Shown here in pieces: positions 14,566-58,359 of a stretch of DNA of 64,000 bases. Position numbers and translations under genes: made by a program. The first letter of the stretch is position 1; each line of letters starts with the position of its first letter. The notes under the pieces were generated by a model. That model worked only from the letters and a program-made list of their open reading frames with translations, ran no database searches and was not told the origin of the DNA. Origin of the DNA: a virus; the IMG/VR virus record IMGVR_UViG_3300045988_165036, positions 32,001-96,000 of that record. One strand, given 5' to 3'.

Positions 14566-14887
14566 GAAAGGACTAGTTGTTAAGTAGTCTGTTTTATAGA
14601 CAAAAGCACAGACAGGTGGACAAGTGTATTATTACATTTCTTGTCTGTACTTGCTTGACAACAGGTTTCAAGCTTTAGTGAATGCTGTTTTACGAAAGTA
14701 ATCCTGCATGATGAACTACGTTGGGGAAAAGGTTAAAAACGCATCTTCGGATGTACTCGTCAGTCTGAAGCTCTGCGAGTGCCAATCAAGAAACTGTGCT
14801 AGTGTCCTGCATAGATAACAGAGAAACACATATACCCTCCCCGACATTGGCAAGACGAAAATTACTCCGAAAGGAAGGCATCCAGAG
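14566..14887 (+). ncRNA. candidate IscB omegaRNA (locus 1)
   Basis: ~320-nt non-coding, hairpin-rich stretch immediately 5' of iscB on the same strand. It shares ACTACGTT (14715-14722) and GGATGTACTCgtCAGTCTGAaGCtCTGCG (14749-14781), at similar spacing, with the region upstream of the second IscB (37870-37877, 37902-37935). Confidence 0.7.
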
Positions 14888-16135
14888 ATGGAAAACAAAA
14901 TTGAATACTGCTTTGTGGTTGATAAAAACAATCGGCCATTGGCGCCGACGAAAGTTAATAAAGGCTGGTATCTGGTTAGAAAAGGCAGGGCAAAAATAAA
15001 ATCCAGATATCCTATGGTAATACAGTTGGAAAAGGAAGTGGAACCTGATGAAGATGATGAAAGCCATATGGTCTGCGGTATTGATGACGGTTCTATGCAT
15101 GTAGGGCTTGCCATTGTTCAGAAATGTCCTACCAAAAATAAAGTGGTTTTTAAAGGGACGATGGAACAACGCCGGGACGTAAAACATTTAATAGATATCA
15201 GACGTGGATATAGGCGTTATCACCGTTATCATAAAAGATACAGGCAGACAAGATTTAATAACCGTTCATCTTCTAAACGAAGCAACAGGTTGGCGCCAAG
15301 TATCAGACAGAAGAAAGATGCTGTTTTAAGGGTATTGTATCGGCTTAATAAGTGGTGCAACATCCAGGAATACTTCCTTGAAGATGTCTGCATGGATGTC
15401 CGTGCAATGACAGATGGTTACAAACCCTATAGTTGGCAGTATCAGAAATCTAACCGTTTGGATGAAAACCTTAGAAAAGCCGCTATTCTGAGAGATAATT
15501 ATAAATGTCAGGAATGTGGGAAATCCGGCTGTGTGTTAGAAGTACATCATATCAGGGCAAGAAAATATGGCGGAGCAGATACCATTGGGAATCTGATCAC
15601 GTTATGTGGAAAGTGTCATGATAAAACAAAAGGCAGAGAGCGGGATTTTGAAAACAGATATTTTGATATGATCAAATCCCAGCCGAAAAAATTTGATTAT
15701 GCTATGCATGTTATGCAGGGAAAAACCTATCTGAGAGAAAAGATTTCTGAATTAGGAATATTGCATCTTACAAATGGCGGGGATACTGCTAATAAACGCA
15801 TTAACTGGAATATAGAAAAGTCCCATAGTAATGATGCGATATGCATTACAGATAGTATTCCTGATACGTGTGATGTGAAAGAATGGATTATTAAGCCAAT
15901 GAGAAGGAAGTCGAAAGCTAAAACGGATAATGTGTTAGGAATTAAGCATAGGGATTTAGTTTCTTATACATATAAAAATGGAGAAACTCATACAGGATAC
16001 GTCACTGCTTTATATCCAGAACGAGTAGCTTTGAATTTTCAATCAAAAACCAAACATTGTAAAAAAGTAAATGCGCGAAAATGCAAATTGCTTTGGAGGT
16101 TTAATAATATTTATTGGTTAGAACAACGCGTATAA
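14888..16135 (+). CDS. iscB: IscB RNA-guided nuclease (OMEGA system)
   Basis: 415 aa. PLMP-like N-terminus ([24 protein letters not shown]), RuvC-I ([15 protein letters not shown]), Arg-rich bridge helix ([22 protein letters not shown]), RuvC-II (FLEDV), HNH ([22 protein letters not shown]), RuvC-III (HSNDAICI), and a C-terminal TID-like segment. Confidence 0.9.
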
Positions 16136-16185
16136 TTTTACATATTCGTCTATATAAGCATATTTTGAGAAAGGGGGGCGGCATT

Positions 16186-17445
16186 ATGCCACAGATTTCT
16201 AACCAAATCAAAATGGGATCTGGCGAAAATTATAAGTATATCATTGACGGGAAGAATGCCGCCGTCGGCGATATTAAAAAGTATTTAAAAATTTCAGAGA
16301 TTAAAAAGATTATTGGAAGAAAAACAATTTACCCTCGATTCCGTATTTTTGTTTTGAATCCGGACGAAACAGTGAATTATCAGCTTCCAAACGAAGACAT
16401 TTTGTCCGGTGGTTCGTATAGTGAAAATTATCAAAACGGTTCTCGCCGGACGCTGTCTTTTTCATTAAACAATCAAGAAGGAAAATATACTCCGTCGATC
16501 AATAATTTGTGGGTAGATACGAAAGTTCGACTCGATGTTGGGTTGGAAGTTCCGGACGAAAATCTAATTATTTGGTTTCATAAAGGCGTTTTTGTGATTA
16601 CTTCTGCCGATCCATCAAAATCGACAGAAACCAAAACGGTGCCTATAAGTTGTGCTGACAAGTTCGAAATTTTGAATGGAAAACGCGGAACGGTTGGAAC
16701 GACGGTCGAGATTCCTCCAGGTATGCCAATCAGAGATGTTATTCAAGACATTTTGTGGTATGACAGCGGGACAGGCGATGTTCTCGACCCGATTCCGTTC
16801 TTTTATCATCCCGCGTTTGAGGGAAAAGTAACGCCGATTACGATAACACTGTCCGCCGGGTCGAATTATGGGAATTTGATTATGCAGATTGCGGATGTTC
16901 TGTCTGCAGAGGTCTTTTATGACTCCTACGGACAGTTAAATTTCGTTCCGGTTATTGATGTGATTTCTGACGGAGACAAACCAAACCTTTATGATTATTC
17001 AATTGAACATCTGCAAAATGAAAACTTTTCAATTGATTTAAACTCTTTTGTCAACTGTGTTTATGTTGTAGGGGCAAATATCAATGGACATATTTGCACG
17101 GCAGTTAAAAAGAACGAAGATCCGACTTCTCCGATTTCGGTTGGAAGAATCGGGCTTCGTGTCGCTGATGTGATTAATGACTCCAACATTACGACAGACC
17201 AATTGGCGGAAGAACGGGCAGAGTATGAATTGCGGAAAAAGATCATATCGGAAAGCACATTAAGCAGTTCTGTTATGTTTAATCCGCTTTTAAGTGTTAA
17301 TAATATAGTAACATATACAGATGAGGAAGATTTCGATATGAAACGAGAAAGATTTTTAATCCAGAGCATTTCCTTTAACTTGGGATACGACGGACTAATG
17401 TCATTGAACGTTTCGAATGTAAATAATCTTTCGTTTGTATATTAA
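16186..17445 (+). CDS. tail/baseplate protein
   Basis: ATG 16186 with SD aaagggggg. 419-aa ORF between IscB and the fibre gene. Function from context only. Confidence 0.55.
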   Translation: MPQISNQIKMGSGENYKYIIDGKNAAVGDIKKYLKISEIKKIIGRKTIYPRFRIFVLNPDETVNYQLPNEDILSGGSYSENYQNGSRRTLSFSLNNQEGKYTPSINNLWVDTKVRLDVGLEVPDENLIIWFHKGVFVITSADPSKSTETKTVPISCADKFEILNGKRGTVGTTVEIPPGMPIRDVIQDILWYDSGTGDVLDPIPFFYHPAFEGKVTPITITLSAGSNYGNLIMQIADVLSAEVFYDSYGQLNFVPVIDVISDGDKPNLYDYSIEHLQNENFSIDLNSFVNCVYVVGANINGHICTAVKKNEDPTSPISVGRIGLRVADVINDSNITTDQLAEERAEYELRKKIISESTLSSSVMFNPLLSVNNIVTYTDEEDFDMKRERFLIQSISFNLGYDGLMSLNVSNVNNLSFVY

Positions 17446-17460
17446 TAGAAAGGAGATAGT

Positions 17461-19665
17461 ATGGCAGAATTTAATTCGAGTACAGAATCCGGTTGCATTG
17501 CGGGCAATCTTCCGTTAAAGGTTATGCGCGTCGCGATGGAAAATAAGGGACTTCTTGAAAAAGCAGGATCCCTTTATTGTGGAACCGGGAAAGTAAATCC
17601 TGTAATAATTGAAAATGAAAGATATGACGTTCCTGTCACAATTGCTGTCGAACCCCCAGAAGGCGGAGTAAAAAGCAACACAACTTATGGAATCCAATTT
17701 ATGCTTGACGGAAATGAAAAAGTAGCTGGCGCAATTATGCGGCCATCGGGTTCTGCAGGAGGCTCTATAGGACCTACCGGTCCGCAGGGTCCTAAAGGGG
17801 AGCCCGGTCCGCAGGGTCCTAAAGGGGACAAGGGCGATCCAGGATTTGTGCCGACGGGCGGAAAGGTGCAAATCACTCATGTAACCTATAATAGCGATAC
17901 TGGGGCTATTTTTACAGGGATGCTAATTATGCCCGGAACGCCTAACGCAATAAGTATACCTTTTACAACAAACGTCCCTATTATATCCGGCAATAATGTA
18001 ACAATTAACGTGAATGAATCGGGCAATGCCTTAGTCATAACGGCAGAAGGAGGAACGGGGACTGATGGCAAATGGAACGATCAGGCTTATCGACTTCTTA
18101 AAACGGTGTTAGAAAACATTGCCTACACAGATGATCATACAGGACAAAATGCGGCAGAAAGCTTAATTGCAATATTGACAGCAGGGTCTCAAATCAACAG
18201 AATCACAGCGACTCTTAAAGAAAAAACAAGATATATAGGAGATGCTTTAACAGAAAATGATTTTACTGTGACAGGCTATTACGACAATGGAGATTCTGAA
18301 GTAATTACAAGTGGGTATACAGTGTCTCCCCAGACTATCACAGTTCTCAGTTTTAATGCGACAATCACTTACAATTCTCTTAAAACAACTGTTCCTGTAA
18401 CTGCACAGGAAAATCTAGCTCAGTCGTGGGTAATTGATAGCTATACACCAACTAAAACAGTGCTTTATGTTGACGACGATATCAAGACAAGTGGTTATTT
18501 TACCCACACAGTGACCTTTAACAATGGAAAAACACAGACATTGACTAGTTGGGACAATATTTCTGAAATCAATCCTAAAGTGTTTACAGACACGTCAACA
18601 ACAGTAACAGCAAAAATAGCTTATGCAGGACTATTCACCACTCAGGACTATACCATAACAGGAATTAAAGCAAAGCCTGTTGCAACGACACTAGAGGCAA
18701 CTTATACAGGGTCAACCAATGTCGGAACAGAGGTAACAGCTAGTAACTGGACGTATAAAGTAAAAGACCAGTATGGAAATGTTATCGATCCGGGTGGAAC
18801 TCTAGTACAGTCGCCCAATTTTGTTACTTTAATTGAAGGTGATAACACAATAGGCTTAACTCTCATGTTTAGTGGTGGACAAGTTTCCACACAGAAGGTA
18901 ATTGTTGGAGTTGCGGGCGCTCCCACACTTACAGGCTTAACAGCGACCTATACGGGTGGCGCAGTAGCAGCCGGCACAACTTTAGACCAACTAAACGAAG
19001 TCGTCAAAGCAACATACTCTGATGGCTCTACATCAACAGCTCTAACCAAAGGCACTGATTATACACTGTCCGGCGCACTAACTCCCGGTCAAACAAACAC
19101 CATCACAGTAACTGGCAAGGGCACATACGCAGGCTTTACAACCACCTTCTCGGTAACAGTGGAAGCAGCATCAACCTCTGTTACATACGCAAAAATGTAC
19201 ATTTACCCAGTTGATTATGATACAAGTTTAGGTGCGATGCAAAGTCCACACATACAAACAAACAGAGCTAATTCGGCTGGATGGAATATTGTTGGAAGCG
19301 GAACTACTACATCTCCAGCTGGTTTGCATGGCAATACTGGAAATGTTACTTTCGATCAGGCACTAACAGCAACTCCAAAAACTATCAAGATTACAAGAGT
19401 ATCTACAGAAGACCAGCCCACAGCCGCTAATGCCGGATACGATGGTGTATGGACTCTCAATGCAGATGCTACAACAGCTGATGGTCATTGTTACATTCTA
19501 TCAAATCATACAAAGAAATCTCTTGCTGTTGCTGCTGGTGACATTGAATGGATACGTGATGGTAACAATTATGCAGGTATTTCTAAATTCGTAACAAACT
19601 CCGCAGCTGTTCAGTATTTTGGAAAAACATGTCCTCATGGTGTGTTGTTAGAGGTGGAATGCTGA
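17461..19665 (+). CDS. tail fibre with collagen-like G-X-Y tract and Ig-like repeats
   Basis: GPTGPQGPKGEPGPQGPKGDKGDPG, followed by several ~70-aa repeats of the bacterial Ig-like type (..DFTVTGYYDNGDSEVITSGYTVSP.., ..VKATYSDGSTSTALTKGTDYTLSG..). Confidence 0.75.
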   Translation: MAEFNSSTESGCIAGNLPLKVMRVAMENKGLLEKAGSLYCGTGKVNPVIIENERYDVPVTIAVEPPEGGVKSNTTYGIQFMLDGNEKVAGAIMRPSGSAGGSIGPTGPQGPKGEPGPQGPKGDKGDPGFVPTGGKVQITHVTYNSDTGAIFTGMLIMPGTPNAISIPFTTNVPIISGNNVTINVNESGNALVITAEGGTGTDGKWNDQAYRLLKTVLENIAYTDDHTGQNAAESLIAILTAGSQINRITATLKEKTRYIGDALTENDFTVTGYYDNGDSEVITSGYTVSPQTITVLSFNATITYNSLKTTVPVTAQENLAQSWVIDSYTPTKTVLYVDDDIKTSGYFTHTVTFNNGKTQTLTSWDNISEINPKVFTDTSTTVTAKIAYAGLFTTQDYTITGIKAKPVATTLEATYTGSTNVGTEVTASNWTYKVKDQYGNVIDPGGTLVQSPNFVTLIEGDNTIGLTLMFSGGQVSTQKVIVGVAGAPTLTGLTATYTGGAVAAGTTLDQLNEVVKATYSDGSTSTALTKGTDYTLSGALTPGQTNTITVTGKGTYAGFTTTFSVTVEAASTSVTYAKMYIYPVDYDTSLGAMQSPHIQTNRANSAGWNIVGSGTTTSPAGLHGNTGNVTFDQALTATPKTIKITRVSTEDQPTAANAGYDGVWTLNADATTADGHCYILSNHTKKSLAVAAGDIEWIRDGNNYAGISKFVTNSAAVQYFGKTCPHGVLLEVEC
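17777..17828 (+). repeat. 27-bp-period tandem direct repeat inside collagen tract
   Basis: ccggtccgcagggtcctaaagggga occurs at 17777-17801 and identically at 17804-17828. Confidence 0.9.
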
Positions 19666-39286: not shown

Positions 39287-39316
39287 AGGGATTGCTGTTT
39301 CTTTGGCAATAGTATT

Positions 39317-39481
39317 ATGAACGAGGCGGTCAAAGTTGGGTTTTATCCAAAAGATTTGTTTATACTTTTAGCGAAGAACCGGCTTGTGGCAGATTGGCAA
39401 ATTCAGAATCAAAAGAACGCAAGAAAGTTTCATAGTTATTTTTGGGTCTTCGAAAAGTCTGACAAAAAAATAGAATATTAA
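39317..39481 (+). CDS. small hypothetical ORF (54 aa)
   Basis: ATG 39317 to TAA 39481. No motif and no strong SD. Confidence 0.3.
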   Translation: MNEAVKVGFYPKDLFILLAKNRLVADWQIQNQKNARKFHSYFWVFEKSDKKIEY

Positions 39482-39488
39482 TTTTTGC

Positions 39489-39515
39489 AAAACCTCTTGA
39501 CAAACAGGAGGTTTT
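39489..39515 (+). terminator. terminator-like hairpin whose loop carries the -35 box
   Basis: aaaacctc (39489-39496) pairs with gaggtttt (39508-39515). The loop contains TTGACA. Confidence 0.45.
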
Positions 39516-39525
39516 GCGCTATAAT
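39497..39525 (+). promoter_or_regulatory. sigma70/sigmaA-type promoter
   Basis: TTGACA 39497-39502, 17-bp spacer, TATAAT 39520-39525. Confidence 0.75.
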
Positions 39526-39613
39526 AATAGTAGAAATGAAAGATTGGCTTTATTTACAAAGGATTTTTGAAAAGGAGAGAAAAAAATGACTATTGTTGAC
39601 TTTTATAAGAAAG

Positions 39614-40801
39614 GTGAAAGCGATTATAAAAACAATTCGAGTAATGTTGCTTCCAAACAACAAACAGCAAACTAAATTATTTCAATATGCCAATACTGCT
39701 CGTTTTGCTTATAACTGGGCAATAGGAAGAGAACAAGAAAATTATAAGAATGGTGGAAAATTTATATCTGATGGAGACTTACGAAAAGAGTTTACACAAT
39801 TAAAGAAAACTTCTGAATATGCGTGGCTAAACAATGTTTCTAACAATGTAACAAAGCAAGCAATTAAAGATGCTTGTGAGGCGTACAAAAATTTCTTTAA
39901 GGGAATTACAAAGTCCCCACGATTTAAGAGTAAGAAATATTCAATGCCGAAATTCTACCAAGATAATGTAAGAATTCAGTTTACAGACACACATGTAAAG
40001 ATTGAGGGTTTTGCTACGTCTAAGAAAAAGAATAAGCAAAGACTTAACTGGATAAGACTTGCCGAACGCGGAAGAACACCTATTGGAAATACAAAGTATA
40101 TGAATCCACGCATTAAATATGATGGACTTAATTGGTATATCACAGTTGGAATTGAATACGAAAATTCTACCGCTCCTCCAACCAACGAAGGTGTTGGAAT
40201 CGATTTAGGCATTAAAGATTTGGCAATATGTTCTGACAAGAACAAGTATCAGAATATAAACAAAACCCAAAGAGTTAAGAAGTTAGAAAAAAGAAAGCGC
40301 AGGCTACAACGTTCCATATCAAGAAAATATGAGAATAATAAGAAAGGAGAGCGTTACTGCAAAACAAGCAATATTATAAAAAGTGAAAAAGAACTTTTAA
40401 AATTGAATCACAGACTAACGAATATTCGTCAGAACTACCTACATCAAACAACATCTGAAATTGTAAAACGAAAACCAAGTTTTATCTGTATGGAAGATTT
40501 GAATGTGAGTGGAATGATGAAGAATAAACATTTGTCTAAAGCAGTTCAGCAACAAGGGTTTTATGAATTTAGGAGACAGATTGAATATAAGTCTGAGTGG
40601 AATAACATTCCAGTAATTATAGCAGATAGATTCTTCCCGAGTTCTAAGTTATGTAGTTGTTGTGGAAATATCAAAAAGGATTTGAAACTTAGCGACCGCA
40701 TTTACAAGTGTGAATGTGGAAATATCATAGATAGAGATTATCAAGCAAGTCTAAATCTGAAAAGACATGGAGAAATGTTATTAGAACAATCTGCATTATA
40801 A
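39614..40801 (+). CDS. tnpB: TnpB RNA-guided nuclease (IS200/IS605 OrfB family)
   Basis: RuvC triad contexts GIDLGIKD / CMEDLN / IDRDYQASLN. Zn-ribbon CSCCG..CECG. N-terminus IRVMLLPNNKQQTKLFQ. GTG 39614 chosen as start (the longest ORF starts at TTG 39593). Confidence 0.9.
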   Translation: MKAIIKTIRVMLLPNNKQQTKLFQYANTARFAYNWAIGREQENYKNGGKFISDGDLRKEFTQLKKTSEYAWLNNVSNNVTKQAIKDACEAYKNFFKGITKSPRFKSKKYSMPKFYQDNVRIQFTDTHVKIEGFATSKKKNKQRLNWIRLAERGRTPIGNTKYMNPRIKYDGLNWYITVGIEYENSTAPPTNEGVGIDLGIKDLAICSDKNKYQNINKTQRVKKLEKRKRRLQRSISRKYENNKKGERYCKTSNIIKSEKELLKLNHRLTNIRQNYLHQTTSEIVKRKPSFICMEDLNVSGMMKNKHLSKAVQQQGFYEFRRQIEYKSEWNNIPVIIADRFFPSSKLCSCCGNIKKDLKLSDRIYKCECGNIIDRDYQASLNLKRHGEMLLEQSAL

Positions 40802-40975
40802 CACTTTCAAGTTAATGCAGATATGTACTGGCACGTTAGTCAGGAATTTACGCCTATAGAGTGTACAAGAACTTGTGAGTAGTATATCAGAAATGATTAC
40901 AAAAGCATATACGATGAAATAGGAATGAAACATAAAAGTTTATAACTTTTTATAAGTTTTCAGTAACGGAAGCCA
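40700..40975 (+). ncRNA. candidate TnpB omegaRNA/reRNA (locus 1); boundaries approximate
   Basis: By the known architecture, the omegaRNA overlaps the tnpB 3' end and the right end of the element. Perfect 10-bp hairpin atctgcatta/taatgcagat spans the stop codon. A ~175-nt non-coding tail runs up to the primase start. Confidence 0.45.
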
Positions 40976-40977
40976 CG

Positions 40978-41988
40978 ATGCTCACAGATGTTAAACAAAT
41001 GTTAATAGAAAACCCAGAGCACATCGTGGAATTGCTCGAAAGGTTTGAGTTCTGCCACATCCATCTCAAACGAACAGAAATTCGGTTTGCCCGTAACGAA
41101 GAAGGTGGTCAGAACATCTCAATTCGGCTCGAAGATAATCCTTCAATTTATGTTAAAGATTTCGTAACAAATGAGAACGGCGACATTATCGCGTATATAA
41201 TGAAAAGTCGTTCGGTGAAGTTTGTCGAAGTCTTGTCGGAAATCAAGAGCGTTCTCGGGCTTGGAGACGATTGGGAGCCCCCAAAGCGCGATATGTTGTT
41301 CGGTGGATTTTATGACCGAATTGGAGAGGATAGACATATTGAGATTACGACGTATCCCGAATCGATTATGGACCAATATGTCGATAAGGGAAATCGGCGC
41401 TGGCTCGATGATAACATTTCACTTGCGGTTCAGCACGAGTTCGGGGTCAGATTTGACCCGATAGAAGACCTGATTGTGTTTCCGTGGAGGTCGCCCGTCG
41501 GAGGAGAGATTATCGCAGTAAAAGCTCGCGTTAATCACCCGTTGGAAGATGGTCAACAGAAATATTGGTATGTTTACAAGGGCGCCGTCAGTAATTCTCT
41601 TTATGGTATTATGGAGAATTATAGCGGACTGTTTGGAAACGAAATTTGTGTTGTTGAAAGCGAAAAAGCCGTCCAGCAACTGGCGACAATGGGATATCGA
41701 AACACAGTGGCTCTTGGGTCGAGCAATTTGTCAGAGGAGCAGGCTCGGCTAATTATGACGCTTTCTCCGACTTCCGTTGTGTTCTTGTTGGACGAAGGAC
41801 TGGAAAAGGAACACACGATGAAAAATGTGGAAACATTGCGTCAGTATTGCGTATTAAGAGATTTGCCGATTCGTTGGTGGAATTGGACGAAAAGCTCGGT
41901 TGTTGATGGGAGCGGGAAGAATAGTCCGACCGATTTGGGGAAAGAGAGGTTTGACAAGGTTATGAGAGAGGAGCTAGAAGTGATTTAA
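40978..41988 (+). CDS. TOPRIM-domain DNA primase
   Basis: VVESEKAVQQLATMGY (TOPRIM Glu) and VVFLLDEGLE (DxD-like). Lies upstream of the polymerase. Confidence 0.6.
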   Translation: MLTDVKQMLIENPEHIVELLERFEFCHIHLKRTEIRFARNEEGGQNISIRLEDNPSIYVKDFVTNENGDIIAYIMKSRSVKFVEVLSEIKSVLGLGDDWEPPKRDMLFGGFYDRIGEDRHIEITTYPESIMDQYVDKGNRRWLDDNISLAVQHEFGVRFDPIEDLIVFPWRSPVGGEIIAVKARVNHPLEDGQQKYWYVYKGAVSNSLYGIMENYSGLFGNEICVVESEKAVQQLATMGYRNTVALGSSNLSEEQARLIMTLSPTSVVFLLDEGLEKEHTMKNVETLRQYCVLRDLPIRWWNWTKSSVVDGSGKNSPTDLGKERFDKVMREELEVI

Positions 41989-42947
41989 TGGGCGCATTTA
42001 AAGATATAACTGGACAGCAATTCGGAGACTTCATCATCGACTCTTTTGACCCGACAAAAGGTAAGTATAAATATTATTGGAATTGTCATTGTGTAAAATG
42101 TGGTTATAAAAAATCAGTAGAAGGAAGCAGTATTAGAGCCGGAAATAGTACAAGATGTATTTGTGATAAGTCTTTTGGACGAAGAGAAAGTCTCGGATAC
42201 GAAAAAGATATATCTGGAAAAGTTTATGGTGGTTTAACTGTTTTGGGCTATTGCGACACGAAAAGCACACGTTCAAGATGGCTGTGTAAATGCAATTGTG
42301 GGAACGAGGAAGTTTTTAGTATTTCACAATTAAAAAGAAGAAAAAATCTGATGTGTTCCCAATGTGTGGAAAAATATAAAGATATAAGAAATGTGATTTC
42401 AGAAGAAAATTTAGACTCTAATGGGATTCCAATAAATATTGTTCAATCTACTCAAAGAAAACAAAACAAATATGAAATTCAAAACGATGAGACTATTATC
42501 AACGATAAAATTATTGTAGATAGTAAGTTTATGGATTGTTTGAAATCATTCGATAGATACATTAGTATAGACAGCCGTGGATATGCATATTTTTCATATT
42601 GTGGTCAAGATGTATATTTACACAGACTTTTGACAAACACCTCATTATTTTTCGATACGAATGGCAAAGACATAGAAATAATCGATCATATAAACAGAAA
42701 TAGATGCGATAACAGAATTGAAAATTTAAGAACGATTAAAAAATCTGAAAACTCCATCAATTGTTCAGTATATTCAAATAATAAAAGTGGGTATAAAGGT
42801 ATTTCTTGGCTTGAAAGATTACAAAAATGGCAAGTGAACATTCAATACAGAAAGATAAATTATTATGTTGGCGTGTTTGAAAATATTGATGATGCAATTT
42901 TAGCAAGAAAACGAGCAGAAATGGATTTATTTGGAAAGGTGAATTAA
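41988..42947 (+). CDS. HNH-AP2 homing endonuclease (free-standing)
   Basis: IDHINRNRCDNRIENLR (HNH_3-type) and SGYKGISWLERLQKWQVNIQYRKINYYVGVF (AP2-type). N-terminal Cys-rich repeats. Confidence 0.8.
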   Translation: MGAFKDITGQQFGDFIIDSFDPTKGKYKYYWNCHCVKCGYKKSVEGSSIRAGNSTRCICDKSFGRRESLGYEKDISGKVYGGLTVLGYCDTKSTRSRWLCKCNCGNEEVFSISQLKRRKNLMCSQCVEKYKDIRNVISEENLDSNGIPINIVQSTQRKQNKYEIQNDETIINDKIIVDSKFMDCLKSFDRYISIDSRGYAYFSYCGQDVYLHRLLTNTSLFFDTNGKDIEIIDHINRNRCDNRIENLRTIKKSENSINCSVYSNNKSGYKGISWLERLQKWQVNIQYRKINYYVGVFENIDDAILARKRAEMDLFGKVN

Positions 42948-42949: not shown

Positions 42950-45900
42950 ATGCAAAATCTTCATCGGCATACTTCGTATTCAAATGTTTGTATTGCAGAT
43001 TCTGCGGCAACAAATGAACAATATGCCAAAAGAGCGGTAGAATTGGGTCACAAAGTAATTAGTAGCGTCGAGCACGGGTGGCAGGGATATTATTATCAAT
43101 GTTATGAACTTGCTCAAAAATATAATCTCAAATTTGTTTTTGGAGCAGAGGCATATTGGGTAAAAGACAGGAAAAAAGAATATGAAGAAATTGATCCATT
43201 GACAGGAGAACCGTTAAAAAATAAAGACGGAACAATAAAGGCGCATAAAGATAACTCTAATTGTCATATATTACTTCTTGCAAAAACAGAAATCGGAAGA
43301 CGCGCCATCAACAAAATTCTTTCAGAGGCAAACGAAACGGGGTATTATTTTAGACCCCGTGTCGATCTCGAACTTCTTCTTTCCCTCCCTCCTGACGATG
43401 TGGTCGTAACAACTGCTTGTGTGGCATATTGGAAATATGAAGATATCGAAGATATTACTCTTCGGTTGTGGAAACATTTTGGAAAAAACTTTTATCTGGA
43501 GATCCAAGCGCATAAAACAGAACAACAGAGAGAAATCTCCCGTAGAATTCTTTCCTTGTCGCGAAGATATGGAATTGAAATGATTGTTGGTCTTGACAGT
43601 CATTACATTTATCCGGAACAGGCACAGGAGAGAGAATATATTCTTGAAGCAAAAGACGTCCATTATAAAGACGAAGAGGGGTGGTATATGGACTATCCCG
43701 ACGACGAAGAGGTTATGAGACGTTTTATGGAGCAAGGAGTTTTTACAAGGGAACAGGTTCAAAGAGCGATGGATAACACGGACATCTCTCTAACGTTTGA
43801 TGATTATGCAAAAGACAATCCTGTTTTCAGCAAAGATATTAAACTTCCTACTCTTTATCCGAATCTTTCACAAGAAGAAAGAAACAAAAAATATAGTGTT
43901 CTGATTAGTAAGCTTTTTAGAGAGTATGCAGAGAAACATCACATTACGGGAGAAGAGTATAAGAGATATCTTGAAGGAATCAAAATGGAAGTTCAGACGG
44001 TTAAAGATACCGGAATGGCCGATTACTTCCTTCTCGACTATGAAATCGTCAAAAGAGCGATTGAAAAAGGGGGCGTTTTGACAGACAGTGGAAGAGGATG
44101 TTTTACGTCTGACGCAATGGCTTTAACGATGGGCGGAATCAAACATATTAACGAAGTTAAAGTTGGAGATTTTGTAATAGATCAAAACGGAAATCCGCAA
44201 AAAGTTGTTAACACAATGGAATATGATTGCGATGAGGAAATAGTTCAACTTCTTTATGCATATGGACCAAATACTCATAATCCATTGATTTGCACAAAAG
44301 ATCACAAGATCTTGATTCATAGAAACGGGCAAAATTCTTGGATTGAAGCCGGGAAAATTCAGCAAGGAGACTATGTTTGTTCTCCGAAAATTCATTTCGA
44401 AAATCGAGCACCTGAATATATTGATTTAAATGATTATAATGTTTTTGGGTATGATTTTGACGACGAATACATTTACGAATATCGTCCAGCTGCAAATGGT
44501 GTTGTTGAATTTAACTCCATTGATGTTTCTAAACACATTGGATGTTCCAAGCCGTGGGTTTTGCAAGTCGTTAAAAATCCTAATCGCACGAAGTTTAAGC
44601 ATCCCGAATATGTGGACAGATTATTGAAATATACCGGATTTAGTTCTCTTCAAGAATATAGGGATTATTTAAAAAACTCTCATGTTATCAAGATTAAGAG
44701 ATTTATAAAAAACGACGAGCTGTTCAACACGTGGATTGGTATGATGTATGGCGATGGATGGGTTCGCGGCGCGAAAGAATCTACAGAGGTTGGAATGGCG
44801 TTTTCTACCTATGGACACAAACAGTCTTACAACAGAGAGATTTGTATTAAAATGATCGAACGTTTTGGTGCTCCGTATAATTGTGCCATCCATAAAACAA
44901 AACAATTGGAACAAATTATTATGAAGAGCCGCATCGTTAATGAATTTTGTAAAAATTTTCTATTCACAAGTAAGAAGGGAAAGGCAAAAATCTTTAATCA
45001 AGATTTATTTTATCAATCCGAAAATAACTTAAGCGCGCTATTAAACGGTTTAACGATTACTGATGGGAGCATGGGAAAAGAAAAAAGAAGAGACAGCTTT
45101 GACAACACGTCTCAAAGCATTGTTGGAGCATATAAAATTTTAGTGTCGGCAGTCTCTCCTTGCCCCACAAGTCTGCTTGTCAGAAACGCATACGAAGATA
45201 GTAGAGGATATCATTCTCAGACTGGTTATAAAATAAGAGTTATGAAAGATACGGACACTCATGTGCTTTCGGCGTATAGAACTCTTTCTGACAACAACTA
45301 TGTTTATCTTCCTGTTTCTCAAATTAAGGCAATTGAGAAAAGCAAACGAAAAGTATATGACATTACCGTTGAAAATTCCCACAGTTATGTATTAGATAGC
45401 ATAGTTGTTCATAATTCATCAGTTGGATATTTCACAAACACTCTTCTTGGTTTTTCAAAAGTCGATAGATTTCAAAGTCCGATAACTCTTTATCCTGAAC
45501 GATTTATTAGTAAAACAAGAATTCTAGAAACCCATTCTCTTCCAGATATTGATATGAACTGGGGAACCCCCGAAATTGCAGAAGAAGCACAGAAAGAAAT
45601 TCTTGGAGACGACCACGCAATTCCAATGATCGCCTTCGGAACCTGTAAAAAGAAGTCGGCGTTTAAATTGTTCGCTCGTTCTCAAAATATGGATTTCGAA
45701 CTGGCAAACACCATCTCTTCGCAAATTGCAGATTATGAAGAAGCAGTTAAAAACGCAGAAGATGATGATAAAGATCAGATTGATATTTATGATTTTGTAG
45801 ATAAAAAATATTCCAACTATATTGAACAGAGCAAAAAGTATTGGGGCATTATTATGGATAAGAAGAAAGCTCCTTGTGCCTTTCTTCTTTATCAAGGCAA

Positions 45901-47554
45901 TATCCGAGAAGAAATTGGTCTGATTAAATGTAAGTCGGAATCAACAGGAAAAGAATTTTTAACAGCCGTTGTAGACGGAGCGATTGCAGAAAATTATAAA
46001 TTTCTAAAAAACGATATTCTTTGTGTAAGTATTGTTCTTTTGGTTGATAAGATTTATCGTAGAATTGGAATTCCGCACAAAACGGTTGAAGAACTGAAAG
46101 ATTTCGTTAAAAACGATCCAAAAACTTGGGACATTTATAAAAACGGATATACTCTTGGGGTTAATCAGTGTGAGCAAGTAAGTTCTGCAAAGAAAATGAT
46201 GCGCTTTCAAGCAAAAAACATTTCAGAACTTTCGGCGTGGATTGCCGCAATTCGCCCTGCTTTCAAGTCGATGTACTCCAAGTTTGAATCGAGGGAATCT
46301 TTTAGTTATGGAATTCCTGCCTTTGACAAACTCCTACAGACAGAAGAACTTCCGCAGTCGTGGATTTTGTATCAGGAGCAGTCGATGTCTGTTCTTTCGT
46401 ATGCAGGATTTCCGATGGATGAATGTTATGGAATCATAAAGGCAATTGCTAAAAAACACCCCGAAAAGGTTCGTCCGTTGAAGGATAGATTTATCGAAGG
46501 ATTCAAAAAGAGGATTGTTACAGAGGAAGGAATTGAAGAAACTCAAGCGCAGGAAATGAGCGAACGGGTTTGGCAAATCATCAACGACTCTTGCGGGTAC
46601 GGTTTCAATTCTGCTCACGCATATTGTATGGCAATCGATAGTCTTTCTTGCGCAATGTTGAAAGCGAATTATCCATACGAATTTTATGAGGTGCTTTTAC
46701 AGTTCCATTCAGATAGAGGAGAAAAAGATAAGGTTGGCGCTCTAAAAGCGGAAATGAAAAAGGCTTTTGGAATTCAAGAAGGTCCATATCGATTTGGAGA
46801 AGATAACCGAAAGTTTAATGCAATTCCGGAAAGAGGAATTATTCAACCGTCTCTCTTGTCAATTAAGGGATTGAGTCAGGATTTGGCAAACGACCTTTAT
46901 GAACTTTCTAAAACAAAACGATTCGATAATTTTATAGACCTGTTGAGAGAATTCGATCATATGAAATCAATGAATGTTGCGAAGTTGGATACATTGATTA
47001 AACTCAATTATTTCTCGCAATTCGCACCTATTGGAAAACTTCTGAACATTGTCGAGCTCTATAATAAGTTCGGAACCAGCAAAACACTCAAAGAATCTGA
47101 CGTTTTGTCTCTTCCAACGCCTATTCAAGAAGTTATTGCAAAATATACCGTTAAACCGAAAACACAGTATAAAATCACAGATAGCGACGGAATGCTCCGG
47201 GAACTCGCGGGGTTGGTTGGAGAACGCCCGATTACGATGATGATGCGGCTGGAATGGGAGCAACAGTATTTGGGTTATTGCGCTTCTACCGACCCATCGC
47301 AACAGGGAAGTTGGTTAGTTCTGGACGCCGATACTAAATATTCTCCGAAGTTGACAATTTTTTCTATTTGGAGTGGAGAACAGCGTGTTGTTAAAGTCTC
47401 GAAGCGCGACTTCCAATCCAATCCTCTCACCAAAGGTGATACAATTCGTCTGACTATCGAACAACGTCCGAAGGCGAAGCTCGTAGATGGACAGTGGGTT
47501 AAGGACGAAAACGTTAAAGAAGATTGGCTAAAATATTATTCAATTGTAAAGTAA
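42950..47554 (+). CDS. dnaE: DNA polymerase III alpha (DnaE-type) precursor containing an intein
   Basis: PHP domain (NLHRHTSYSN...SSVEHGW). Pol III core SGRG/SSVGYFTNTLLGFSKVD is split by the intein. 1534-aa ORF. Confidence 0.9.
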   Translation: MQNLHRHTSYSNVCIADSAATNEQYAKRAVELGHKVISSVEHGWQGYYYQCYELAQKYNLKFVFGAEAYWVKDRKKEYEEIDPLTGEPLKNKDGTIKAHKDNSNCHILLLAKTEIGRRAINKILSEANETGYYFRPRVDLELLLSLPPDDVVVTTACVAYWKYEDIEDITLRLWKHFGKNFYLEIQAHKTEQQREISRRILSLSRRYGIEMIVGLDSHYIYPEQAQEREYILEAKDVHYKDEEGWYMDYPDDEEVMRRFMEQGVFTREQVQRAMDNTDISLTFDDYAKDNPVFSKDIKLPTLYPNLSQEERNKKYSVLISKLFREYAEKHHITGEEYKRYLEGIKMEVQTVKDTGMADYFLLDYEIVKRAIEKGGVLTDSGRGCFTSDAMALTMGGIKHINEVKVGDFVIDQNGNPQKVVNTMEYDCDEEIVQLLYAYGPNTHNPLICTKDHKILIHRNGQNSWIEAGKIQQGDYVCSPKIHFENRAPEYIDLNDYNVFGYDFDDEYIYEYRPAANGVVEFNSIDVSKHIGCSKPWVLQVVKNPNRTKFKHPEYVDRLLKYTGFSSLQEYRDYLKNSHVIKIKRFIKNDELFNTWIGMMYGDGWVRGAKESTEVGMAFSTYGHKQSYNREICIKMIERFGAPYNCAIHKTKQLEQIIMKSRIVNEFCKNFLFTSKKGKAKIFNQDLFYQSENNLSALLNGLTITDGSMGKEKRRDSFDNTSQSIVGAYKILVSAVSPCPTSLLVRNAYEDSRGYHSQTGYKIRVMKDTDTHVLSAYRTLSDNNYVYLPVSQIKAIEKSKRKVYDITVENSHSYVLDSIVVHNSSVGYFTNTLLGFSKVDRFQSPITLYPERFISKTRILETHSLPDIDMNWGTPEIAEEAQKEILGDDHAIPMIAFGTCKKKSAFKLFARSQNMDFELANTISSQIADYEEAVKNAEDDDKDQIDIYDFVDKKYSNYIEQSKKYWGIIMDKKKAPCAFLLYQGNIREEIGLIKCKSESTGKEFLTAVVDGAIAENYKFLKNDILCVSIVLLVDKIYRRIGIPHKTVEELKDFVKNDPKTWDIYKNGYTLGVNQCEQVSSAKKMMRFQAKNISELSAWIAAIRPAFKSMYSKFESRESFSYGIPAFDKLLQTEELPQSWILYQEQSMSVLSYAGFPMDECYGIIKAIAKKHPEKVRPLKDRFIEGFKKRIVTEEGIEETQAQEMSERVWQIINDSCGYGFNSAHAYCMAIDSLSCAMLKANYPYEFYEVLLQFHSDRGEKDKVGALKAEMKKAFGIQEGPYRFGEDNRKFNAIPERGIIQPSLLSIKGLSQDLANDLYELSKTKRFDNFIDLLREFDHMKSMNVAKLDTLIKLNYFSQFAPIGKLLNIVELYNKFGTSKTLKESDVLSLPTPIQEVIAKYTVKPKTQYKITDSDGMLRELAGLVGERPITMMMRLEWEQQYLGYCASTDPSQQGSWLVLDADTKYSPKLTIFSIWSGEQRVVKVSKRDFQSNPLTKGDTIRLTIEQRPKAKLVDGQWVKDENVKEDWLKYYSIVK
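44099..45415 (+). mobile_element. intein with LAGLIDADG homing endonuclease domain (439 aa)
   Basis: Starts with Cys right after SGRG (CFTSDAMALTMGG). Block B TKDHKIL. LAGLIDADG motifs WIGMMYGDGW and LLNGLTITDGS. Ends VVHN, followed by Ser +1. Confidence 0.85.
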
Positions 47555-54405: not shown

Positions 54406-54415
54406 GTGGTATACT
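54387..54415 (+). promoter_or_regulatory. sigma70/sigmaA-type promoter
   Basis: TTGACA 54387-54392, 17-bp spacer, TGgTATACT ending at 54415. Confidence 0.75.
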
Positions 54416-54444
54416 GTTTCCAGAAAGAAAAAGGAGTAAGTACA

Positions 54445-54621
54445 ATGTGTAAAAATATCTCAACAAACAACATTCTTTACAAAAATTTAGATGTTTCTAC
54501 TCCTATCACAACAGAAGTGATTTTACCAAAAGATATGGTGATTTTTATACCAGAAGATTCGTTTGCAAAGGAAAGGGGATTAAAGTGTCAACAAGTAGAA
54601 TTATCGTCGAGGGGTTTGTAA
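54445..54621 (+). CDS. small hypothetical ORF overlapping the helicase start
   Basis: ATG 54445 with SD aaaggag. 58 aa. Confidence 0.35.
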   Translation: MCKNISTNNILYKNLDVSTPITTEVILPKDMVIFIPEDSFAKERGLKCQQVELSSRGL

Positions 54622-56924
54622 ATAAGCAAATCTTTCCTCGGACAAAAGTAAAAAGTGGCGATTTCGCCATATTTACGTTTTCACCGGAAAGTGTAATCGG
54701 CGAAATCGACAAGCGGGCTAAAAATCCAAAATATAGAACCGACGATATAACATTTAAGGGTCGTGTCCCCGAACTCGATGGCGGAACAAGATATAAAATA
54801 ACCGCAGACCTCAAGCAGGACGCAAAATATGGCTGGCAGTATGATATCGTCAGCATTAACTCCGTTGTTAAACTCGACACAGAGGCAGATGTTAGAAAGT
54901 TTCTCGGTTATGTTTTTACGGAAAATCAAATCAACGCACTATACGAAGCATATCCGAACCCCGTTGAGATTCTGGAGCGCGGAGATATCGAGGCGCTGTG
55001 TAAAATCAAGGGAATCAAAGAGGCAAAAGCAGAAAAGCTTTTAAGTAAGTATAATGCCTCCAAAGATAGTAGTAAGGCATATATGACACTGTCGGAGTTT
55101 GGGCTGTCAAAGGCAACCATAAACCGTTTGGTTGAACATTATGGCTCCGCAGATATTCTCGCCGAAAAAGTAAAAAATAACCCATACGCACTGATTGGAG
55201 AGGGCGTTCGAATCGGCTGGTCGAAGGCGGACGGTATGGCGTTGCGAAAAGGAATCCCAACAAATTCTCAGTTTCGAATTAACGCATATGCGCTGTATTA
55301 TTTGAGAAACCTTGCGGAGCTTGACGGTCACACGTGGGTTCCGTTAGAAGCTCTTGGTTCCGGCATTAAAGGATTGTCCACAGATATCTCCACCGAAATG
55401 GTAAAAAGAGAACTTCAAGGAATGGTCGAAAACAAAACGCTGTTTTACGACAGGGAGACAAAGCGAATCGGACTTATGAAATATCGAAAGCTCGAAGAGA
55501 TGATTTGTCGCGAGCTTTTGAGACTTCAGGACGCAGAGTGTCGCAAAATGGAGTTCGTTGAAGAGACAATCGCGGAGTGCGAGGAAACCGTTGGTTTCCA
55601 ATATACCGAAGAACAGAAAGATGCGATACGAAATTTAGTGAATAAAAACGTCATTTTAATGACGGCTCTCGGAGGTAGTGGCAAGACAACGTTGATGTAT
55701 CCAGTCTCTCGGATCTTCAGAAGGAATGGATTAGGTTTCGAAATCTGCGCTCTCTCTGGGAAAGCATCGCTAAACCTTCATGAGATCACGAAAGAAGATG
55801 GTAAAACAATTCATCGCCTTCTTGGATGGAATCCAAAGTTCGGTGGACCGACCTTCACAAAGAAAAATCCTCTAAAAACCGATGTCGTTATTTTGGACGA
55901 AGTTTCAATGGTCGGTGGAGAGTTGTTTTATTCGTTAATTTCTGCGATTCCCGATGGCGGTCGTCTGATTATGCTGGGAGACCCCGGGCAGTTGGAGTCA
56001 ATTGGTTTGTGTAACCTGATTTCAGATATTCAAAACTCTAGGAAGATAACAAACGTAAAACTGACAAAGATATTTCGTCAGGCGCAGCGCTCAGGGATAA
56101 TCACGGACTCTCACAAGGTTTATAATCAAGTTCCAATTATCCCGCAGAAGTTCCACGGAGAAGAAATCCACGGAGAGCTAAAAGATCTAAAAATCATAAC
56201 AAAGTCTTCTTCTGAAGAATGCCTCGAAACAATCAAAAGAGAGTTTAAGCGACTTTACTTCGACGAGAATATTCCGATCGAAGACATTTTGATTCTTTCC
56301 GCAAAGCGTTCAATGGGAGATTTGTCTGGACTGTCAATCAACCACGAAATTCAGAGTATGATTCAATTCGAGGACGAAAACCCGCTAAAAATCACATATT
56401 CTGATGAAATCAAATATGATGTATTGTATCACGTTGGTGATAGAGTGATTGTGATGAAAAACAATTATGAGGCAAAAACACCAGAAGGAAATACAATAGA
56501 AATTTTTAATGGAAACATCGGTACAGTAATTGCTAAAGATAATTTCCGCCGACAACTCGTTGTTCGTCTCACTCAAGGAGATGTCATCATTGAGGGAGAT
56601 ATGTTGCTTGAACTTCAACTCGGATATGCAATTTCTTGCCACCGAGCGCAAGGTTCCGGTTTTCCATACGTCATTGTGGCGTGCGACCCCGTGGCGTATC
56701 AACTTCTCACAAAGCAATGGTTGTATACGGCACTGTCGAGAGCAAAGAAGTATTGTGTTCTTGTTGGGACAGACAAATCAATCAATCAGTGTATTAAAAC
56801 AGACAGGGTGACAAGAAAATCAACGTGGCTTGCAGAGTTGCTGATGTTCCCCGAAAGAATTTGTTGTATTCGGATGACGGATTCAACGCAAGACGAAAGA
56901 ATTCAAATAGATATGGAGGATTAA
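54585..56924 (+). CDS. RecD-like SF1 helicase
   Basis: ALGGSGKTT (Walker A), VILDEVSMV, GDPGQLESIG, SCHRAQGSGFPYVIV. Confidence 0.85.
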   Translation: MSTSRIIVEGFVNKQIFPRTKVKSGDFAIFTFSPESVIGEIDKRAKNPKYRTDDITFKGRVPELDGGTRYKITADLKQDAKYGWQYDIVSINSVVKLDTEADVRKFLGYVFTENQINALYEAYPNPVEILERGDIEALCKIKGIKEAKAEKLLSKYNASKDSSKAYMTLSEFGLSKATINRLVEHYGSADILAEKVKNNPYALIGEGVRIGWSKADGMALRKGIPTNSQFRINAYALYYLRNLAELDGHTWVPLEALGSGIKGLSTDISTEMVKRELQGMVENKTLFYDRETKRIGLMKYRKLEEMICRELLRLQDAECRKMEFVEETIAECEETVGFQYTEEQKDAIRNLVNKNVILMTALGGSGKTTLMYPVSRIFRRNGLGFEICALSGKASLNLHEITKEDGKTIHRLLGWNPKFGGPTFTKKNPLKTDVVILDEVSMVGGELFYSLISAIPDGGRLIMLGDPGQLESIGLCNLISDIQNSRKITNVKLTKIFRQAQRSGIITDSHKVYNQVPIIPQKFHGEEIHGELKDLKIITKSSSEECLETIKREFKRLYFDENIPIEDILILSAKRSMGDLSGLSINHEIQSMIQFEDENPLKITYSDEIKYDVLYHVGDRVIVMKNNYEAKTPEGNTIEIFNGNIGTVIAKDNFRRQLVVRLTQGDVIIEGDMLLELQLGYAISCHRAQGSGFPYVIVACDPVAYQLLTKQWLYTALSRAKKYCVLVGTDKSINQCIKTDRVTRKSTWLAELLMFPERICCIRMTDSTQDERIQIDMED

Positions 56925-56958
56925 TCGATGCTAATAATTTATATGGAGCGCAAGAGCA

Positions 56959-56978
56959 CCCGTGGCTTTAGTCGTGGG
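56959..56978 (+). repeat. left-end subterminal imperfect palindrome of TnpB element 2
   Basis: The reverse complement of cccgtggctttagtcgtggg (cccacgactaaagccacggg) resembles the right-end motif ctcacgactaaagtcgcgag (58231-58250). Confidence 0.4.
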
Positions 56979-57043
56979 ATGAATTGCGCTTAGAATGTTA
57001 TAAATTAAACAATATATTAAAAATCAAAAAGGAGGTGAAGGGC

Positions 57044-58159
57044 GTGGAAAAGGCTTATAAATACCGCATATACCCAAACGAACGGCAAAAAGAAATAATT
57101 GCAAAAACATTTGGTTGTTGCCGATTTGTATATAACAAATATCTTGCAGAAAAGATTGAATTATATAAAACCGAAAAGAAAAACATAACATATGTTAAAT
57201 GTGCAAAAGCAATGTCTGAATTGAAAAACGAGCTTGAATGGCTTACGGAAGTCGATTCCACGGCTCTTCAATCCTCGTTAAAAGACTTAGATAACGCTTA
57301 TAAAAAATTTTTCAAAGAACATGCGGGTTATCCAAAATTCAAAAGCAAGAAAGATAATCATAAGTCTTACAAATCTAAATACACAAATGGTAATATAGAA
57401 TATCTGAACAACCACATTAAACTACCGAAACTTGGTTTGGTAAAAACGAGAAACAAGTTAATACCGCAAGGAAGGATAGTTAATGCAACAATATCACAAG
57501 AACCAACTGGAAAGTATTTTGTATCGTTGTGTTGTGTGGGCGTGAATATTCAGCCATTACCAACCACAAACAATTTGGTCGGTATAGATTTGGGGATTAA
57601 AGAATTCTGTATAACCAGTGATGGTGAGCTTGTGAACAACCCGAAATATCTTAAACAATCTCTTGACAAGCTTGCGAAAGTGCAGAGAGAACTATCTCGA
57701 AAAACAAAAGGTGGCTCTAACCGCAATAAAGCAAGAATAAAAGTTGCGAGATTGTACGAGAAGGTTTCTAATCAACGAAGAGACTTTTTGCAAAAACTTT
57801 CAACGCAAATAATAAAAGAAAATGACATGATTTGTCTCGAAGATTTGCAAGTTAAGAATATGGTTAAAAACCATAAACTTGCACGAGCAATCAACGATGT
57901 TTCTTGGTCGGAGTTTGTAAGAGAATTAGAATATAAAGCTCGTTGGTATGGAAGGACGGTAATTAAAGTCAGCAAATTCTTTCCGAGTTCACAGACTTGC
58001 AGTATTTGCGGTTGTAAAAATGCAGAAACAAAAAGTCTTAAGGTTAGAGAGTGGGATTGCCCCGTTTGTCACGCACACCATGACAGAGATGTAAATGCGG
58101 CGATAAATATTTTAAACGAAGGATTAAATGTTTGGCGGAATGAGAAAAATATGTTATAA
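57044..58159 (+). CDS. tnpB: TnpB RNA-guided nuclease (IS200/IS605 OrfB family)
   Basis: N-terminus [17 protein letters not shown]. RuvC triad contexts GIDLGIKE / CLEDLQ / [10 protein letters not shown]. Zn-ribbon CSICG..CPVC. SD aaaggagg 7 nt before GTG 57044. Confidence 0.9.
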
Positions 58160-58259
58160 TACAAACAACCGTTGGGACAACGGGGATAGCTTGGTAAATA
58201 TTTCGACAGTGGTCGGAAATTCCCAAGAATCTCACGACTAAAGTCGCGAGAGGTTCAAC
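58050..58259 (+). ncRNA. candidate TnpB omegaRNA/reRNA (locus 2); 5' boundary approximate
   Basis: Overlaps the tnpB 3' end. Hairpins ccgttgggacaacgg and ctcacgac-taaa-gtcgcgag (58231-58250), ending in gaggttcaac (58250-58259), a plausible scaffold terminus. Confidence 0.5.
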
Positions 58260-58359
58260 AGATTCACGAAATGTCTTACGGATACGAAGACTATCGTGAT
58301 ACCATCGTGAAATCATAGAAAGCTGTGATTGCTTCGAAGCGGAAGAAGACGGCGAATCT

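Follow-up and report, generated by a model that had tools for sequence, protein, structure and literature searches.

OMEGA elements in a gut phage genome: comparative evidence suggesting RNA-guided homing between related phages

Why does a phage genome carry four RNA-guided nucleases of the transposon-borne OMEGA type, and could these act there as homing elements? The question is raised by a 64,000-nucleotide stretch of viral DNA (positions 32,001 to 96,000 of IMG/VR virus record IMGVR_UViG_3300045988_165036; hereafter the window, whose coordinates are used unless a position is given for a named locus). Cas12 and Cas9 descend from TnpB and IscB, for which, to our knowledge, the only natural roles demonstrated are retention of the transposon within a single genome and, more recently, its spread among copies of a plasmid; classical homing endonucleases, for their part, thrive in phages. 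The window encodes IscB-1 (14888-16135), IscB-2 (37994-39286), TnpB-1 (39593-40801) and TnpB-2 (57044-58159), which lie on the plus strand as do all genes of the window. Pfam domains identify the former two (RRXRR and HNH in 14888-16135 and 37994-38989) and the latter two (HTH_OrfB, OrfB_IS605 and Cas12f1-like_TNB in 39593-40801 and 56984-58159), and each of the four adjoins a structured guide RNA recognised through Rfam or covariation. A first-pass annotation, made from the sequence alone, had thus described the content correctly as two IscB and two TnpB genes beside structured RNAs. It was also right to regard the DNA as that of a phage, given the tail proteins, DnaB-like helicase, primase, intein-bearing DnaE, RecD2 and NrdD encoded in the window.

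The same annotation had treated the nucleases as one system, and this view was not retained. No DNA repeats common to the four nuclease loci were found in the window, and a coordinated four-part system was rejected on account of this and of their separate histories; what the window holds are four independent selfish elements, namely two IscB elements of IS200/IS605 type, one non-autonomous IS605-type TnpB element with complete ends and one IS607-type TnpB remnant. We put the probability at roughly 0.6 that, of these independent OMEGA insertion elements, at least TnpB-2 and the IscB-1 family spread and persist by homing, with host TnpA acting in trans for their entry. This reading draws on the observed anatomy of the elements, on matches of guides to targets, on presence/absence differences between relatives and on tracts of identity centred on the elements. 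The relatives are phage contigs from IMG/VR together with bacterial loci, and are given L-numbers where they need to be told apart.

The TnpB-2 element and its insert-free site

The TnpB-2 element occupies 56943-58258 (+) and is a whole, non-autonomous IS605-type element with hairpins at both ends, as delimited by comparison with the insert-free loci L004 and L005. It starts with ATGGAGCGCAAGAGCACCCGTGG and ends with GAGAGGTTCAA at 58258, where the right flank begins; the insert-free site reads TTTAT/CAGATT (the slash marking the insertion point), and hence there is no target-site duplication. The target-adjacent motif (TAM) TTTAT stands at the left end (56938-56942, +), a junction found here and in the autonomous bacterial relatives L157-L159, and is also the TAM of GstTnpB2 (PMC10055086). 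The tnpB-2 open reading frame (ORF; 57044-58159, +) has a GTG start and encodes 371 aa without interruption. Its product matches the TnpB of ISDra2 (8bf8) with an E-value of 1.5e-101, which makes it likely that TnpB-2 is active; the motifs GIDLG, LEDL and DRDVNAA are readable, and both the RuvC D-E-D triad and the zinc ribbon are present. The structured core of the omega RNA (58167-58258, +) comprises three helices supported by covariation, as RNAalifold on 18 homologous 3' regions gave 27 pairs, 17 of them with compensatory changes. This 3' RNA belongs to no Rfam family, and folding of the single sequence was only marginally better than that of shuffles (z = -1.8).

Directly after the element lies the guide segment (58259-58274, +; CAGATTCACGAAATGT), which corresponds to codons 6-11 of a small 114-aa gene; this gene was split by the insertion and later decayed in the window. 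In a scan of viral contigs, TTTAT followed without interruption by the 16-nt guide was found in one contig, 3300045988_169799 (L005, position 10149). This contig comes from a close relative with 98% DnaB identity, and it carries the intact 114-aa gene at the insert-free site; a search of viral contigs with the 114-aa gene returned L005's own contig only. The expectations that guides derive from flanking DNA, as in canonical elements, and that they match empty sites in related phages were in this way supported, the latter for TnpB-2, with a perfect TAM and all 16 nt.

The element was then compared with its copies in L003 and L006, where 0 mismatches were found over 56910-58347, the identical stretch reaching 33 and 89 bp into the flanks. 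Beyond it, the left flank contained 25 mismatches in ~220 bp and the right flank was 97% identical as far as 58443 and ~79% identical thereafter; between phages with a copy at this site, flank divergence amounts to 10-20%. Index entries for the exact TnpB-2 protein come from 86 assembly blocks, and in the 25 contigs read the protein occurred in three contexts, all of them directly after RecD2 (with 0, 1 or 2 inteins). An exact-pattern scan of Joint Genome Institute (JGI) metagenome contigs for the left end of TnpB-2 gave no match.

The IscB-1 family and the IscB-2 and TnpB-1 copies

The whole IscB-1 element measures 1603 bp (14572-16174, +) and is absent from five relatives (L075-L079). Its ORF (14888-16135, +; 415 aa) is apparently intact, with readable RuvC and HNH motifs, and aligns full-length with the solved structure of HfmIscB (PDB 9k2z; 830 bits, 411 residues), a closeness that makes activity of IscB-1 likely. 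The protein has the PLMP/RRXRR-RuvC-HNH arrangement and the C-terminal target-interaction domain of the IscB/HEARO class, and an omega RNA of HEARO type lies upstream. The HEARO match itself (14619-14865) is weak, at 34 bits and below the Rfam gathering score, and the scaffold was additionally recognised by covariation, since RNAalifold on 19 homologous upstream regions yielded 72 pairs, of which 26 showed compensatory changes. As the first helix begins with ACTAGTTG (14572), the scaffold is placed at 14572-14887 (+) and the preceding 16 nt are taken as the guide (14556-14571, +; CAGAATAACAGAAAGG). This guide takes in the final part of the intergenic region upstream together with the 5' half of a tail gene's Shine-Dalgarno sequence, and the insert-free loci L076, L075 and L077 differ from it by 1, 2 and 2 mismatches, respectively.

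The boundary of IscB-1 has a register ambiguity of 7 bp, as AGAAAGG stands at both 14565-14571 and 16168-16174. We considered AGAAAGG as an element-encoded end motif and AAAGG as a TAM, and prefer the boundary at the scaffold start because the bases to the left of ACTAATTG vary within one subfamily, whereas the distal AAAGG is constant. An insert-free site for L083, the closest relative of IscB-1, was sought as a second example of the boundary, without a match. The distal end of the element appears to give the tail gene (ATG at 16186) a replacement Shine-Dalgarno sequence.

The same arrangement recurs across the IscB-1 family, which comprises 74 viral loci (L083-L156) with 66-94% aa identity, most of them at least 80%, and in which at least 32 different left flanks were counted among viral contigs. 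At nearly all loci, A(A)GG closes the left flank and TTTT(N)AAAGG the element, after which come AG(G), a spacer and an ATG; the first bases of the right flank, after the element-borne AAAGG, are usually AGG or AG (32 sites). The family hence appears to sit inside Shine-Dalgarno sequences (AAGG/AGG, the slash marking the insertion) and apparently supplies the replacement. Elements of the family point the same way as the downstream gene. At the distal end, a hairpin conserved in the family (AATGTGTA...TACACATT in L083 and L084) corresponds to AACGCGTA...TACATATT at 16124-16147 of the window, where only 5 of 8 pairs would form, and this degraded hairpin may reflect a loss of transposase recognition.

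The exact IscB-1 protein occurs in the context of the window phage only. In other phages, however, members of the family showed the same kind of identity tract as TnpB-2. When L088 was compared with L090, L139 and L150, there were 0 mismatches in 1603 bp. In 1200 bp of flank, by contrast, 226-545 mismatches were counted on the left and ~260 on the right, those closest to the element lying at about -190 and at +30 to +39. TnpB-2 and the IscB-1 family thus share the features of homing elements, that is, presence and absence at the same site, elements more alike than their flanks, and short co-converted stretches, with identity running only tens to ~200 bp into the flanks.

The IscB-2 element (37791-39316, +; start possibly at 37790) is absent from L068, L069 and L072, and is inserted between the Shine-Dalgarno sequence and the ATG of a 54-aa ORF. 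It is flanked at 39317-39321 by the TAM ATGAA, the reverse complement of TTCAT, which is the TAM of GstIscB (PMC10055086). Its omega RNA (37791-38011, +) matches the full length of the HEARO model (Rfam RF02033, 128.6 bits), and the guide (ATTTGGAGGATATTGT; 37774-37789, +) lies directly 5' of the HEARO start; L069 is identical to this guide but reads AATGA where the TAM ATGAA stands, a one-base shift of the TAM. The iscB-2 frame (37994-39286, +; Pfam RRXRR and HNH) contains an in-frame stop codon (TAA, 38987-38989); the L070 homologue has CAG at this position and reads through. The resulting 331-aa N-terminal product is devoid of the C-terminal domain and is not a complete IscB, although the HEARO RNA and the TAM are in place; because the stop removes ~100 C-terminal residues, IscB-2 is probably an inactive, decaying copy. 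L070 carries its 87% identical copy at a different site, likewise followed by ATGAA, indicating that transposition has occurred.

The TnpB-1 element (about 39573-40969) is probably a decaying copy as well, with no left end and a doubtful start codon. Directly upstream of it lies a promoter-like repeat (39481-39542, +; TTGACA, 17-nt spacer, TATAAT), which is also found in relatives that do not carry TnpB-1. The repeat is followed by a remnant of an IS607-type serine-recombinase tnpA (39586-39675, +; MTIVDFYKKGESDYKNNSSNVASKQQTAN), which aligns to the C-terminus of the MerR and Resolvase protein preceding a homologous TnpB in Enterocloster phage CB457P1 (OP172753). Since that homologue is preceded by a serine recombinase of this kind, TnpB-1 is taken as an IS607-type element. 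The CB457P1 copy resembles it in DNA sequence (78.6% identity), in RAGATH-18 and in the invariant right end; in the window and in L068, by contrast, only the last 29 recombinase codons are left and the left end is deleted, so TnpB-1, with neither the serine-recombinase TnpA nor both ends of an IS607 element, cannot transpose as one. The first-pass annotation had found no TnpA or serine-recombinase signature among the ORFs, which agrees with our phmmer searches for TnpA, with the caveat that this 29-codon remnant survives.

The tnpB-1 ORF (39593-40801, +; Pfam; PDB 8iaz, E-value 8e-84) retains its frame and its D-E-D and zinc-finger motifs, and has 98% aa identity to the TnpB of L068, whose ATG start is ATT in the window, leaving the start codon of tnpB-1 uncertain. 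The 3' part of the omega RNA together with the right end, which closes with TTTTCAGTAACGG, lies at 40853-40969 (+) and includes RAGATH-18 at 40853-40925 (Rfam RF03064, 69 bits). The right end is invariant in four copies, and divergence begins directly after it. The guide segment follows (40970-40985, +; AAGCCACGATGCTCAC) and spans the start codon of the primase gene with the bases just before, where relatives that do not carry TnpB-1 read AAACCACGATGCTCAC or AAACCACGATGCTCGC, giving 1 or 2 guide mismatches. Relative to L068, most of the element diverges by 1-3% and the primase gene by ~7%; the contrast is less marked here than with TnpB-2. Further TnpB genes were observed at other loci of related phages (L077, 4516-5827; L069, 5602-6684), and that of L077 follows a serine-recombinase fragment, which makes it another truncated IS607-type copy.

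Homing weighed against transposition, mosaicism and domestication

The guide of each omega RNA is read from the adjoining phage DNA, so that the complex of nuclease and RNA would recognise exactly the insert-free version of its own locus. When two related phages co-infect a cell, the nuclease would cleave the insert-free genome at its empty site, and recombinational repair from the insert-bearing genome would copy the element along with a short stretch of flank, a step for which TnpA would be unnecessary; here we infer cleavage, the setting of co-infection and the route of repair from sequence comparison. Homing with short co-conversion would predict just these features, namely islands of identity centred on the element, distribution at a single site and a perfect empty target; transposition or selection would explain them poorly because non-coding and synonymous positions are identical too. 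The proposal of the first-pass annotation that the nucleases behave like homing endonucleases therefore holds in part: it agrees with the 100% identical elements in diverged flanks of TnpB-2 and the IscB-1 family, but not with the truncated IscB-2 or the TnpB-1 remnant, and transposition in trans has contributed as well.

In Geobacillus stearothermophilus, TnpB and IscB of IS200/IS605 elements cleave the donor joint (Meers et al., 2023; PMC10055086). The elements of the window resemble these in the RNA-guided nuclease, in the omega RNA guide formed by flanking DNA, in a TAM that equals the target motif of the transposase (TTTAT for TnpB-2 and GstTnpB2, ATGAA/TTCAT for IscB-2 and GstIscB), in their mostly non-autonomous state and in the lack of target-site duplication. 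Unlike them, the window copies reside in a phage genome with no TnpA found in the 80 kb examined; moreover, the G. stearothermophilus elements restore their own locus after excision, whereas the evidence here points to copying into a co-infecting relative. TnpB-dependent but TnpA-independent spread of IS605 among plasmid copies (preprint PMC11870625) is cited in a 2026 review (PMC13565253). The review uses the term 'transposon non-restorative homing' and treats such homing into phages or plasmids that co-infect as a theoretical mode, for which it has evidence from plasmids. As outlined in that review, the plasmid case likewise involves a cut at the orthologous insert-free site of a homologous replicon and repair that copies the element independently of TnpA; here, however, the replicon is a phage, the setting would be co-infection, and the evidence is comparative where that for plasmids is experimental.

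The free-standing homing endonucleases of T4-like phages (SegF, SegB and Mob; intronless homing and localized marker exclusion) show a similar presence and absence between relatives, co-conversion of short flanks, and sites between conserved replication or structural genes that also hold introns, inteins and HNH genes. In those enzymes the target is read by protein, whereas in OMEGA elements it is read by a flank-derived guide RNA, and self is told from non-self in that the insert separates the guide from the TAM. Several OMEGA elements per virulent-type phage, mostly without TnpA and beside group I introns, have been described before, as TnpB-only insertion sequence (IS) elements in Campylobacter phages CP220 and CPt10 (PMC2853527) and as introns, HEARO and RAGATH-18 listed together for Silviavirus phages (PMC13346280). 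These reports were descriptive and contained no analysis of guides against targets or of identity tracts, and our literature search found no report showing OMEGA homing between phages, which has only been predicted. The four elements are thus members of known families, and it is the comparative evidence for homing from phage to phage that deserves further attention.

The strongest competing account is that the elements are passive cargo, that is, non-autonomous IS copies moved only by host TnpA, with nucleases that re-cut the donor site after excision (restorative homing) and no homing between phages. The absence of a transposase, which the first-pass annotation had considered noteworthy, is in keeping with it, as TnpA is found near ~25% of tnpB and 1.5% of iscB genes (PMC10055086) and a missing TnpA is hence the usual state for such elements; so are the TnpB-only IS elements of virulent phages, known since 2010. 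Using phmmer with IS608 TnpA (the sequence of PDB 2a6m), Sulfolobus tokodaii TnpA and a serine TnpA as queries, we found no TnpA in the window and, following the suggestion to search beyond it, none in the 7.8 kb and 8.3 kb past its ends, so TnpB-2 does not qualify as an autonomous IS200/IS605 element with a Y1 HUH TnpA. The first 156 loci (~1.6 Mb), among which were all 74 loci of the IscB-1 family with flanks of 3 kb, contained no Y1 TnpA and three serine-recombinase matches only (CB457P1, MT838565 and the fragment in L077). As a positive control, the same search found Y1 TnpA directly upstream of many bacterial TnpB-2 homologues and of the more distant viral homologues (at most 70% identity).

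Favouring transposition, the closest bacterial relatives of TnpB-2 (67-72% aa identity), in genomes of Clostridiaceae and Lachnospiraceae, are autonomous IS605 elements with Y1 TnpA directly upstream, the same end hairpins and the same TTTAT. As these relatives have TnpA with the same ends and TAM, the OMEGA elements most likely entered phage genomes through host TnpA acting in trans, and related copies at many different sites in related phages fit such movement. The passive-cargo account nonetheless appears unlikely as the whole explanation. The window holds 378 TTTAT sites, and it is improbable that an identical copy would independently hit the same one of these in diverged phages; the exact TnpB-2 protein was seen at no second site in the contigs read; and identity extending into the flanks (33 and 89 bp for TnpB-2, ~190 and 30-39 bp for the IscB family) is not an effect of transposition.

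Ordinary mosaicism, in which general homologous recombination swaps small modules and carries the elements along without any part played by the nuclease, would account for the identical tracts, and it is true that these phages are highly mosaic, with inteins, HNH genes and small genes varying between relatives at the same loci, and that the identical tract of TnpB-2 includes remnants of the neighbouring gene. We consider this quite improbable, however, as each tract has an element at its centre and stops tens to ~200 bp beyond the element's boundaries, as this is seen in two unrelated element families and several phage groups, and as the empty allele holds a perfect TAM and guide target. That the nucleases were domesticated by the phage, for instance as a TldR-like RNA-guided repressor or a weapon against the host or unrelated competitors, seems highly improbable, since, although phage-encoded domesticated TnpB relatives (TldR) are known (PMC10705468) and TnpB-1 stands without a transposon left end directly behind a phage promoter, both TnpBs have intact RuvC D-E-D motifs where TldR has an inactivated RuvC, the guides are each element's own flank and not host genes or host promoters, the window contains no CRISPR array as would accompany a type II or V CRISPR-Cas nuclease, and IscB-2 is truncated. 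Nor does anything in the data point to a benefit for the phage itself.

Several observations weigh against homing. Transfer of TnpB-2 is deduced from two backgrounds, those of the window lineage and of L003/L006, and may represent a single event. IscB-1 of the window has no same-site counterpart in any relative, so that its homing signature comes only from the family elsewhere. Most insert-free sites in relatives have 1-3 guide mismatches or a shifted TAM and may be uncleavable. Element-centred identity tracts could in principle arise from recombination independent of the nuclease, and all compared contigs are metagenome assemblies. The search for tnpA covered ~80 kb of the 134-kb genome. Finally, related copies of the elements are found at different sites in related phages, from which it is evident that ordinary transposition in trans has also taken place. 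With these points in mind we advance a broader version of the homing reading only tentatively, at a little less than even odds: that RNA-guided homing at co-infection, independent of TnpA, lets IscB and TnpB elements sweep through populations of related gut phages, and that one IscB lineage (IscB-1/HfmIscB-like) has become specialised for phages, splitting a Shine-Dalgarno sequence, carrying its replacement and obtaining its guide through read-through transcription.

Phage context and implications

Over the 9116 bp compared, the window matches a 134,160-bp contig from a human-gut metagenome (ENA ERZ963251, SRR2236714, k127_22350) with 100% identity, and the phage genome recurs in more than 20 assemblies; its host probably belongs to the Clostridia. 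Megablast of three 6-7-kb stretches against GenBank phages revealed no close relative, the sole match being the TnpB-1 element, and an exact-protein look-up of 62648-63109 returned no record.

Other intervening elements are also present. A group I intron lies at 326-594 (Rfam, 84.6 bits) and a second intron-like match, just below threshold, at 652-989 (48.5 bits); they sit where the called tape-measure ORF (more than 2760 aa; L322, 1-8231) ends, the gene call ending at 413. DnaE (42950-47554) carries an intein (Intein_splicing, aa 441-822), and the HNH_3 endonuclease gene just upstream of it (41988-42947) is absent from L068 and thus varies between relatives. RecD2 (54585-56924) has no intein in the window and one or two in-frame inteins in L002-L006, L320 and L321, one site being the Walker A motif (GNAG/C...SSN/CGKS, with slashes at the junctions) and the other lying near 56641. 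We had considered the RecD2 insertions as group I introns, but Rfam found none and the insertions proved to be in-frame inteins.

The promoter-like repeat found before TnpB-1 (AAAACCNCTTGACAA, spacer, TATAAT) forms 62-nt units with at least nine copies in the window (21812, 28331, 29654, 34454, 39481, 54371, 58714, 59829 and 63202, by repeat comparison), several of which have an inverted repeat overlapping the -35 element. A 27-bp perfect tandem duplication lies at 17777-17828, inside a 734-aa tail-fibre-like gene. The gene at 33289-34452 encodes a divergent adenylosuccinate-synthetase homologue that is probably PurZ-like, with a match to PHROG 1211 ('2-aminooxy adenylosuccinate synthetase'; E-value 1e-47); a search of PDB sequences returned ordinary adenylosuccinate synthetases (PurA) only, at ~1e-11, and Pfam detected no MazG or HD partner in ten unannotated ORFs, including the surrounding ones. 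The gene is a possible hint of a diaminopurine (Z) genome, and if it is functional, the OMEGA nucleases would act on diaminopurine-containing DNA.

In conclusion, the window provides a natural test case, in which an intact TnpB element, an exact empty target in a sequenced relative and identity tracts fitting recent transfer occur together, so that RNA-guided homing between co-infecting viruses becomes directly testable. If it takes place, such homing would help to account for the high frequency of transposase-free OMEGA elements in the genomes of large phages, and the IscB family that replaces the Shine-Dalgarno sequence it splits suggests how these elements may keep their cost to a compact viral genome low.

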